Shown: positions 883 through 59,675, numbered from the stretch's first letter. The stretch is DNA of 64,000 nt from Octopus sinensis (GCF_006345805.1 NC_043011.1:35290464-35354463), one strand, 5' to 3'. Translations and numbers: made by a program. The notes: generated from the letters alone by a model not told the origin.

Positions 883-1300
883 GCAGGAGTGGCTGTATGG
901 TAAGTAGCTTGCTTACCAACCACATTGATCCGGGTTCATTCCCCCTGCGTGACACCTTGGGCAAGTGTCTTCTACTATAGCCTCGAGCCGACCAAAGCCT
1001 TGTGAATGGATTTGGTAGACGGAAACTGAAAGAAGCCCGTCGTATATATGTATATATAAATATATATATATGTATGTACATGTGTGTATATGTTTGTATG
1101 TCTGTGCTTGTCCCCACAACATCGCTTGACAACCGATGGTGGTGTGCTTACGTTCCCGTAACTTAGTGGTTCGGCAAAATAGACCGATAGAATAAGTACT
1201 AGGCTTCCAAGAATAAGTCCTGGGGTCGATTTGCTCGACTAAAAGGCGGTGCTCCAGCATGGCCGCAGTTCAAATGACTGAAACAAGTAAAAGAGAAAAA
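883..1300 (+). mobile_element. tRNA-headed SINE family A (CORE-like), full length
   Basis: Head gcaggagtggctgt.tggtaag...gggttca, internal (TA/TG)n, tail ...gactgaaacaagtaaaagag. More than 15 copies in the window. Confidence 0.85.
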
Positions 1301-1880
1301 AAAAAGAGATAGCACATTGTTGTGAAAATTATTTTGGTTATTACATTGCAGATTTCTACACTTATGTTTTTTTTTTCTGTAAATTTTACGAAGTGTCAAT
1401 GTGTATGCTTGTGTTTGTAAATCGCATCTGTTTGTTTAAATTGTTACCATTCTCTTTTTTATTTGTCTAGAATTTATTTTCATTCTGTATTTTTTCATTT
1501 TCACAATCTTTAACTATTTTCCCTCGTTTTCCCGATATTTCCTCTTGCCTCTACTCCAGACGAGGAAGAAGCCATCTTTAAAGATTTGGAAATGAACGAT
1601 TTTTCTTTTCCTTTTTTTTTTGTTTTTATTTTAAAAAGTTAAATAAATGCTTAAAAGACAAATATTTTGTCAAGATTTCCAGAAATCTCTTGTTTGCAAA
1701 TAGTCCAATTTTTTTTTTCTTTTTTCATTAAATGAAATATGGCAGAACCCAGTATTGCTGAAAGCGAAGCGAAGCACGACCGATGTCAACAAAAGCAAAA
1801 TTTAAAAAATAACAACTGTTATTAAGGAGAAAGATGGTCAGTTACATCGACCCCAGTGCGTGACTGGTATTTATCTCATC

Positions 1881-1989
1881 TAGCTACGGCGGTACATATT
1901 CTAAAATTGGAACGATACGGAGAAGATTAGCATGGTCCCTGCGCAAGGATGACATGCAAATTCGTGAAGCGTTCCATAAAAAAAAAAAA
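1881..1989 (+). pseudogene. U6 snRNA retropseudogene with poly(A)
   Basis: Near full-length match to U6 (ctaaaattggaacgatac.gagaagattagcatgg.ccctgcgcaaggatgaca.gcaaattcgtgaagcgttccat). The ACAGAGA box is mutated to ACGGAGA and an A-run replaces the terminal U-run. Confidence 0.95.
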
Positions 1990-1993
1990 TTAT

Positions 1994-2224
1994 GGCGGCG
2001 AGCTGGCAGAAACGTTAGCACGCCGGGCGAAATGCGTGGCCGTATTTCGTCTGCCGTCACGTTCTGAGTTCAAATTCCGCCGAGGTCCACTTTGCCTTTC
2101 ATCCTTTCGGGGTCGATAAATTAAGTACCAGTTACACACTGGGGTCGAAGTAATCGACTTAATCCGTTTGTCTGTCCTTGTTTGTCCTCTCTGTGTTTAG
2201 CCCCTTGTGGGTAGTAAAGAAACA
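1994..2224 (+). mobile_element. SINE family B (ggcggcgagctggcagaa head; Nin/Deu-like domain)
   Basis: A/B-box-like head with gagttcaaattcc and body gcctttcatcctttcggggtcgataaattaagtaccag. Many copies in the window. Confidence 0.85.
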
Positions 2225-2439
2225 GGTATTTATCTCATCAACCCCGAAAGGATGAAATGCAAAGTTGACCCCGGCGGAATTTGTACTCAGAAGGTTATCG
2301 CGAAAACCAAAAGAAACTCCACTCCGTACTCAAATTGATATGAAAATACAGGAAACTACTGAGAACTGCAGACGTACATCTAAGGGATAAAGTTGACCTA
2401 ATTCCATCTAAAGCAGAAAAATTTCACAGAGGTATGGCA

Positions 2440-35951: not shown

Positions 35952-36436
35952 ATCTTATTTCTTTATTGCCCACAAGGTGCTAAACATAGAGGGGACAAAC
36001 AAGGACAGACAAACGGATTAAATCGATTACATCGACCCCAGTGCGTAACTGGTACTTAATTTATCGACCCCGAAAGGATGAAAGGCAAAGTCAACCTAGG
36101 CGGAATTTGAACTCAGAAGGTAGCGGCAGACGAAATACCTATTTCTTTACTTCCCACAAGGTGCTAAACATAGAGGGGACAAACAAGGACAGACAAACGG
36201 ATTAAATCGATTACATCGACCCCAGTGCGTAACTGGTACTTAATTTATCGACCCCGAAAGGATGAAAGGCAAAGTCAACCTAGGCGGAATTTGAACTCAG
36301 AAGGTAGCGGCAGACGAAATACCTATTTCTTTACTACCCACAAGGGGCTAAACACAGAGAGGACAAACAAGGACAGACAAACGGATTAAGTCGATTATAT
36401 CGACCCCAGTGCGTAACTAGTACTTATTTAATCGAA
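35952..36436 (-). mobile_element. Tandem array of SINE family B body units (~180 bp x 2.6)
   Basis: Near-identical units cccacaagg.gctaaaca.agag.ggacaaac...gacgaaatacctatttcttt. Confidence 0.9.
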
Positions 36437-59129: not shown

Positions 59130-59675
59130 TCCTTTCTACTGTAGGCACAAGGCCGGCCCCAGTGTTTCACTGGTGCTTAATTTATCGACCCGGAAAGGAT
59201 GAATGGCAATGTCGACCTCGGCGGAATTTGAACTCAGAACATAGTGACGGGCGAAATACCTATTTCTTTACTACCCACAGGGGGATAAACACAGAGAGGA
59301 CAAACAAGGACAGACAAACCGATTAAGTCGATTATATCGACCCCAGTGCTTAACTTGTACTTATTTAATCGACCCTGAAAGGATGAAAAGCAAAGTCGAC
59401 CTCGGCGGAATTTAAACTCAGAACGTAACAGCAGACGAAATACCTATTTCTTTACTACCCACAAGGGGATAAACACAGAGAGGACAAACAAGGACAGGCA
59501 AACCGATTAAGTCGATAATATCGACCCCAGTGCATATCTTGTACTTATTTAATCGACCCCGAAAGGATAAAAAGCAAGTCGACCTCGGGGGAATTTGAAC
59601 TCAGAACGTAGCGGCAGACGAAATACTGCTAAGCATTTCGCCCGGCGTGCTAACGTTTCTGCCAGCTCGCCGCCT
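59130..59675 (-). mobile_element. SINE family B with tandemly repeated body (~3 units)
   Basis: Head at 59675 followed by repeated ~180-bp units. Confidence 0.9.

Follow-up and report, generated by a model that had tools for sequence, protein, structure and literature searches.

A stretch of 64,000 nucleotides from Octopus sinensis (G000:C15:35290464-35354463 in an assembly of 2.72 Gb), hereafter the window (64 kb), carries at 1866-2239 a U6 snRNA sequence with a complete SINE downstream of it. The question raised by this locus is whether the two parts arrived together in one insertion and, if they did, whether the locus records an event of its own or is one copy of a U6-headed composite family.

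A U6 copy and a SINE within one target-site duplication

The 15-mer GGTATTTATCTCATC has two exact occurrences in the window and only two, at 1866-1880 and 2225-2239 (neither assigned a strand), the two positions given in an earlier note made from this DNA; no third copy was found in the 64 kb with up to two mismatches allowed, where dinucleotide shuffles give an expectation of 0.25. The flanking repeat can be extended to 17/18 bases (1863-1880 and 2222-2239), and C1880 can alternatively be assigned to U6 as its base 4. Between the two copies lie, in the same orientation and with U6 placed 5' of the SINE, a U6 retrocopy of the variant found in the tandem gene array (variant A; 1881-1978, plus strand, identified by Rfam and by comparison with the genes), 15 nt of linker (1979-1993, plus strand) and a full-length SINE belonging to a young subfamily of the repeat that we call family B (1994-2224, plus strand; GGCGGCGAGCTGG ... 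GTAGTAAAGAAACA). The linker is made up of 11 As at 1979-1989, or 12 if A1978 is counted, and of TTAT at 1990-1993. The SINE copy is 231 bp long, runs from GGCGGCGAGC to GTAGTAAAGAAACA with its start at 1993/1994, and has ...AAAGAAACA as its final bases. The order of a near full-length U6, an A-run and a SINE that the earlier note had described thus stands, while two of its details are amended: the As number 11-12 and are followed by TTAT, and the U6 is without its 5' 3 nt.

The sequence on either side of the insertion belongs to the same SINE family. We found that the flanks at 1842-1880 and 2240-2295 form a single older copy of SINE B in antisense orientation, covering SINE positions of about 67-161; this diverged target is split into a left piece at 1842-1865 and a right piece at 2240-2295 (both minus strand), with the left copy of the 15-mer also lying within it. 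When the insert and one repeat are excised in silico, the flanks align to the SINE with no gap at the joint and with a local score of 125, against 104 for the same alignment with both 15-mers retained. The proposal that the target was an older antisense copy of the same SINE, resuming past the second repeat, is borne out by this empty-site alignment. Because the flanks are free of gaps once the insert and one 15-mer are removed, we take the 15-mer to be a true target-site duplication (TSD) and not sense SINE consensus; ordinary family B copies end in AAAGAAATA and are followed by unrelated TSDs, which rules out the possibility that the 15-mer is part of the consensus at both positions. No duplication was found around U6 alone or around the SINE alone, nor any further flanking direct repeat at the locus.

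The first seven bases of the right-hand copy are GGTATTT. As the duplication starts with this heptamer, microhomology is plausible, and these bases could instead derive from the 3' tail of the SINE RNA; the real duplicated length may then be 8-15 bp.

Two further observations were made on the locus. A sub-threshold Rfam match to MIR5998 at 2063-2291 on the minus strand (56.3 bits, against a gathering score of 180) was rejected as a microRNA gene, since the two SINE copies, new and old, stand as inverted arms and so produce the match. Sequencing runs exist for five organisms; contigs assembled from reads over 1985-2700 were swamped by SINE copies and broken at 2252-2254, none of them spanning the break, and the unique right flank of the insertion is present in four sequencing runs.

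The window U6 and the U6 genes of the genome

The Rfam U6 model (RF00026) matches the window at 1880-1983 with 87.5 bits, against a gathering score of 44, and over model positions 1-105 of 105. Compared with the U6 genes of the genome, the window U6 is mismatched at three of 98 bases, and the initial 3 nt (GTA) are missing; one of the three mismatches sits in the ACAGAGA box, which here reads ACGGAGA. The body of the U6 is complete to CCATA at 1978, with no T-run after it and the A-run in its place. Upstream lies the old SINE, and no similarity to the promoter of the array genes was found there. Judged by its sequence, the window U6 is a retrocopy and not a functional gene, being without promoter and without T-run and having an altered ACAGAGA box. 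The insertion product was dead on arrival, and the presumed internal promoter of the SINE would leave U6 out of the transcript.

The genome has its U6 genes in tandem on C1, in an array that occupies about 141.83-141.96 Mb. A junction query of 135 bases, spanning the U6/linker/SINE joint of the window, gave 40 scored matches genome-wide, of which 26 fall in this array. The array genes (L015-L030 and L058-L060) recur with a period of about 1.1-1.4 kb, have an octamer-like motif, a TATA at about -30 and a T5-T10 terminator, and read TTTTT(T)CTT past the U6 body. Damaged terminators are seen in some of them (ATTTTATC, ATATTTTC and ATCTTTTC).

Three variants of the U6 5' stem could be distinguished, each represented by a promoter-bearing gene with octamer-like motif, TATA at about -30 and T-run. 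Variant A is that of the tandem array on C1. Variants B and C are each represented by a solitary gene with an array-like promoter layout and a T6 terminator, at G000:C2:121641130 (L168, minus strand) and G000:C19:30763154 (L163, plus strand), respectively. By eye, the stem differences among the variants look compensatory.

Ends and targets of the SINE-B element

A first look at the genome gave 4307 SINE-B candidates, and the element is short and high-copy, with discrete ends and variable TSDs. Ordinary young copies start with (A/T)GGCGGCG after 0-6 extra A/T-rich bases and have TSDs of about 7-38 bp. Given these extra bases at the 5' joint of ordinary insertions, part of every chimera 'linker' is a normal 5' joint; the last bases of the window linker resemble them. 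In about 465 kb examined around sampled loci, copies that reach the SINE-B 3' end start either at position 1-10 (87 copies) or at about position 50 (19 copies). A partner LINE was looked for in the same 465 kb, and no tail-only copy leads into coding sequence.

A GGTATTT-like heptamer follows 31 of 93 distinct SINE-B 3' ends, and 24 of these 31 had inserted at about position 50 of another SINE B, which explains the tandem-looking partial units. A further 29 of the 93 are followed by TA. The SINE-B 3' tail reads ...GTAGTAAAGAAATAGGTATTTT, and the data suggest that the SINE RNA ends in ...AAAGAAAUAGGUAUUUU and that priming would favour targets able to pair with that tail. The microhomology between the SINE 3' end and its target that the earlier note had invoked is plausible in the light of these counts and of L043, a locus described below, which shows ...AAAGAAATAGGTATTTT at a junction other than the target joint. 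Elsewhere in the window, at 35958-36435 and 59154-59674 (both minus strand), a SINE B is followed by head-to-tail partial units covering positions of about 50-230 at a spacing of 181-184 bp; these units fit nested insertion, several times over, at the GGTATTTCG site of the SINE itself.

We also looked for a tRNA in SINE B: ARAGORN found 0 genes, and Rfam gave no tRNA match at E up to 1. The only promoter-like motif visible in the window SINE is GAGTTCAAATTCC, which we presume to be B-box-like. A control scan of 20 ordinary SINE-B loci against Rfam gave 0 matches. We infer that the SINE RNA is a Pol III product; of the earlier statement that two Pol III RNAs are joined at this locus, the joining stands, and the Pol III origin of the SINE part is presumed.

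U6-repeat joints recur across the genome

Besides the array genes, the 40 scored matches of the junction query include 12 more loci with U6, linker and full SINE B, at 87-94% identity, and one further locus in which U6 is joined to a SINE B truncated at about position 80. An exact pattern running from the U6 3' end into the SINE head gave 19 matches, against 0 for the reversed control, and 11 of these are new loci. A more general pattern, for U6 3' ends not followed by a gene-type T-run, matched 147 times, with 0 matches in the control, and the listed matches were sampled; our working set consists of 99 distinct U6 3' ends, of which a sub-sample of 82 fits the pattern exactly.

Among these 82, five were set aside (three array genes and two in palindromic loci), and 68 of the remaining 77 lead into a recognisable repeat head within about 25 nt. 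With family labels that are our own, based on recurrence among the sampled loci and not on a repeat database, and with families C and D split by motif (L064 and L127 by eye), the partner is SINE B in 21 of the 77, a short 'C' element in 26, a CORE-like SINE D in 16 (one of them an internal duplicate), 'family G' in three and another tRNA-like head in two; one of the 77 has an A-run only and eight are unclassified. A 'C' element has the structure GGCGGTGC...CAGCATGGCC, followed by a hairpin, GAAAC and a tail of simple repeats. Variants A and C of U6 are each found with families B, C and D, and variant B with B and C.

The chimeric U6 sequences among the 99 are 5'-truncated at many positions, and the repeat part starts internally in L008, L124 and L128 (family B), L095 and L130 (C) and L077 (D). 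Most chimeras, unlike that of the window, retain 1-6 Ts after U6. Their linkers are often T(3-5)-C-T-A-A-like, which may stem from U6 transcripts that extend slightly further at the 3' end or from a leader at the 5' end of the SINE.

Several loci of other structure were met in the course of the search. L087 (G000:C3:80175159-80176377) and L109 (G000:C8:60689923-60691145) are palindromic, with U6 or its 3' half plus about 90 bp of downstream sequence inverted, and are not U6-SINE chimeras. L080 (G000:C3:7290644, plus strand) and L081 (7297022, minus strand) present the same U6-'C' chimera twice, in inverted orientation and about 6.4 kb apart, which suggests a local inverted duplication rather than two insertions. 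At L092 (G000:C4:42403762-42404984, minus strand), a full-length U6 of variant A is followed by ATATT and A9 and then by an antisense SINE-B head, which makes it a retrocopy of U6 plus A-run with no sense SINE partner. At L077 (G000:C2:167547009-167550031), the U6 3' end and its linker (…GAAGCGTTCCATATTTTCCTAAGG) stand twice in tandem, followed by the 5'-truncated CORE-like SINE.

Target-site duplications around other chimeras

An automatic search of 98 sites found TSDs of at least 10 nt at 23, against 10 in a shifted control; the search is noisy because of TA repeats and SINE-in-SINE nesting, and only non-simple duplications at exact element ends were accepted. Accepted TSDs bracket the two-part unit at L007 and L035 (17 bp each), L006 (16 bp), L014 (14 bp), L012 and L096 (13 bp each), L082, with SINE D as partner (17 bp), and L124, in which both parts are truncated (15 bp). 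They differ from one another in sequence, and the junction whose recurrence the earlier note had raised is thus found at many loci with distinct TSDs, such as L007, L035, L006 and L014. Together, these comparisons show that the genome must hold dozens of separately formed U6-repeat chimeras.

One locus is tripartite. L043 (G000:C30:7955107-7958147, at 1150-1765, reverse strand) has, in order, a full SINE B, GGTATTTT, U6 of variant B, TTTTTAAAAA and a second full SINE B of a different subfamily, all within one 11-bp duplication, AGAAACCAACG. On this arrangement, the unit shows what would be repeated joining inside one event. The 5' joint of L043 has an odd CGGCGAGAAAAA stutter.

Template switching and prior ligation as possible mechanisms

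The earlier claim that a single integration event joined the U6 copy and the SINE copy is upheld by the single TSD, by the lack of one for either part and by the same arrangement at other loci. We consider it probable that 1866-2239 is a single-insertion U6-SINE chimeric retrocopy that arose through a template switch by a LINE reverse transcriptase. Target-primed reverse transcription would have begun on a target of the GGTATTT type, which the SINE prefers and which corresponds to the probable 3' tail of its RNA. Reverse transcriptase would then have copied the SINE RNA to its 5' end, added a few extra bases as at ordinary insertions, and switched to a U6 RNA, starting from the 3' end of this second template. 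The U6 RNA would have had no U-tail and borne about 12 As, and the enzyme presumably fell off 3 nt short of its 5' end. The long A-run without the U6 T-run is unusual, and an extra assumption is needed for it: either an oligoadenylated U6 minus its U-tail or untemplated addition.

Alternatively, an RtcB-type ligase could have linked the two RNAs beforehand, U6 by its 3' end and the SINE by its 5' end, the fused RNA then being reverse transcribed in one pass. Since template switching and prior ligation yield the same DNA product, with one TSD and with U6 5' of its partner, the native 5' ends of the partners and the extra bases at the joints would serve as indirect hints between them. The primary transcript of Pol III carries a triphosphate at its 5' end. 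We found that the native 5' end, with a few extra bases, is the starting point of 31 of the 34 SINE-B partners, and at this end the triphosphate, not the 5'-OH used in ligation, is expected; the native end is also where a reverse transcriptase would exhaust its template, which favours template switching. Internal partner starts, as ligation via 5'-OH ends expects, are rare among the SINE-B chimeras. The extra joint bases vary and are present at ordinary 5' junctions too, which fits untemplated addition by the reverse transcriptase. According to the available part of PMC6789731, ligation requires a 2',3'-cyclic phosphate on the U-tract of U6 and a 5'-OH on the partner, whereas the window U6 has an A-run instead of a U-tract. 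In favour of ligation, U6 is chosen as the 5' partner by a wide margin, which is what a role for its special 3' end would lead one to expect, and the same part of that source gives experimental support for RtcB ligation before reverse transcription in the case of human U6/L1 (PMC6789731). On balance, we regard prior ligation as an unlikely origin of the window copy and retain template switching as our reading of it.

Independent formation of the window chimera

That U6 3' ends are joined to SINE 5' ends at dozens of loci, that the window linker is without a T-run, so that Pol III could read through it, and that some linkers are held in common (L011/L014, L007/L008 and L003/L009) would all be expected if the window element were a member of an amplifying composite SINE with a U6 head, spread from one or a few master loci. 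The junction does recur, but the conclusion that the earlier note had attached to such recurrence, a U6-headed composite SINE, does not follow, as linkers, U6 variants, partners and SINE lineages all differ. The 19 exact-pattern matches carry 19 different linkers; three U6 variants occur in mixed combination with several repeat families; and 38 of the 99 linkers retain at least four Ts. Among the 34 B-type chimeras, identical linkers are confined to L011/L014 and L007/L008, and L003 and L009, which share TAAAAAGAAA, nevertheless differ in their SINE subfamily markers and have no U6 substitution in common. Limited re-mobilisation of these few linker-sharing chimeras is possible but unsupported.

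The closest relatives of the window SINE are ordinary copies: the 29 best matches in the genome share 96-98% identity with it and have TSDs of their own, and none of the 29 has U6 upstream, while the SINE parts of other chimeras reach at most 93.6% identity to it. A tree built from 26 chimeric and 45 ordinary SINE-B copies has the chimeras scattered, with at least 13 label changes needed; shuffled labels need more, because the ordinary set is biased towards the young subfamily of the window. The chimeras form one clade in 0% of 200 bootstrap trees, and a single chimera clade is rejected (P = 0.00013, lnL difference 99.3, by AU test). The U6 part of the window element differs from its gene by about 3% and the SINE part from its relatives by 2-4%, and the two agree as expected for one event.

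A master copy was also sought. Among the 99 U6 sites, only four, all array genes, match the upstream promoter region of the array, and no chimera does. These comparisons show that the window copy can hardly be the daughter of a composite family and must have formed independently. For this copy, descent from such a family appears largely refuted and is, in our estimate, highly improbable, and a U6 gene that lost its terminator and reads through into an adjacent SINE, as one example of a master, is just as hard to credit.

Two sequential insertions, of U6 and then the SINE or the reverse, that abut by chance at one joint are barely credible: SINE B does have strong target preferences, and nested and adjacent independent insertions occur here, but each SINE-B insertion makes a TSD of its own whereas neither part has one in the window, where the sole duplication brackets both, an arrangement also seen at many other loci, whose TSDs again enclose the two parts together. 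We therefore keep to one insertion as the account of the window chimera.

Comparison with known chimeras

The U6-SINE chimera class is known from vertebrates, and the comparisons that follow draw on those parts of the cited reports that were available to us. U6/L2 and U6/Mon-1 chimeras are described in platypus, and U6/L2, U6/RTE and U6/AnolisSINE2 chimeras in Anolis (Doucet et al. 2015, PMC4476161), where it is concluded that template switching from LINE/SINE RNA to U6 is a general property of non-LTR retrotransposons. The octopus chimeras resemble these in having U6 5' of the SINE or LINE tail, in the same orientation and with one TSD around both; in having a SINE partner without a poly(A) tail, so that the LINE is likely of the 'stringent' type; and in having U6 sometimes 5'-truncated and events that are independent and form no family. 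They differ in that the host is a mollusc and not a vertebrate, with at least four repeat families involved; in that U6 is mostly full or near full length, whereas almost all are truncated in platypus; and in that TSDs are 8-17 bp, against 1-9 bp in platypus. In the window copy, the U-tract is replaced by an A-run, unlike in the vertebrate chimeras as far as they are covered in that part of the report (PMC4476161).

Human U6/L1 and rare U6/Alu chimeric pseudogenes are treated in the same report (PMC4476161), and PMC11838501 provides a catalogue of them. As in human U6/L1, a full-length U6 is fused via its 3' end to a retroelement, TSDs are 10-20 bp, and the candidate mechanisms are again template switching or ligation (PMC4476161, PMC6789731). 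According to the text available, an L1 with poly(A) and a variable 5' truncation is the usual partner in human, and U6/Alu is very rare (PMC4476161); in contrast, most octopus partners are complete SINEs, and joints of this kind are common.

Two systems beyond U6 chimeras offer further points of comparison. SINEU comprises snRNA-headed SINE families with U1 or U2 heads (Kojima 2015, as cited in the available part of PMC4758252), and is similar in having snRNA sequence at the 5' end of a SINE-like unit. However, SINEU amplifies with a fixed joint between head and body, while the octopus joints vary by copy and do not belong to one lineage. The tripartite chimeric retrogenes of Magnaporthe grisea (PMC2104539, in the part available) resemble the SINE-U6-SINE unit of L043 in having double template jumps in one insertion; they involve a fungal LINE and different RNAs, and the window's own element is bipartite.

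Implications for U6 annotation and retrotransposition

The literature searched, which for the most part did not include subscription journals, yielded no paper on mollusc or cephalopod U6 chimeras, and the chimera described here is apparently the first mollusc instance of the class. U6-retroelement chimeras in mammals serve as markers of template choice and template switching by LINE reverse transcriptases. The octopus set is notable mainly for its frequency and for the diversity of its partners in a protostome, with several SINE families, at least three U6 gene variants and one double jump.

A wider reading can be offered, though we think it rather improbable. Capture of U6 by the cephalopod retrotransposition machinery might be frequent enough for nearly all dispersed U6 copies to be fused to the 5' end of a SINE, and the joints might preserve U6 3' ends of the germ line (U-tails, short extensions and oligo(A) such as the A12 of the window); a terminator-less subset, including the window copy, could then be readable from a U6-type promoter and constitute a first step towards a SINE with an external type-3 promoter.

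For annotation, the dispersed U6 matches in this genome are best treated as dead chimeras, and the real genes are those of the tandem array together with a few solitary promoter-bearing loci. The set of loci provides a natural experiment on how the 5' and 3' ends of SINEs are defined, on the choice of GGTATTT/TAT targets and on the heterogeneity of cephalopod U6 3' ends. If our reading is true, template switching to U6 would be general across bilaterian non-LTR retrotransposition, and not just a feature of vertebrate L1, L2 and RTE.
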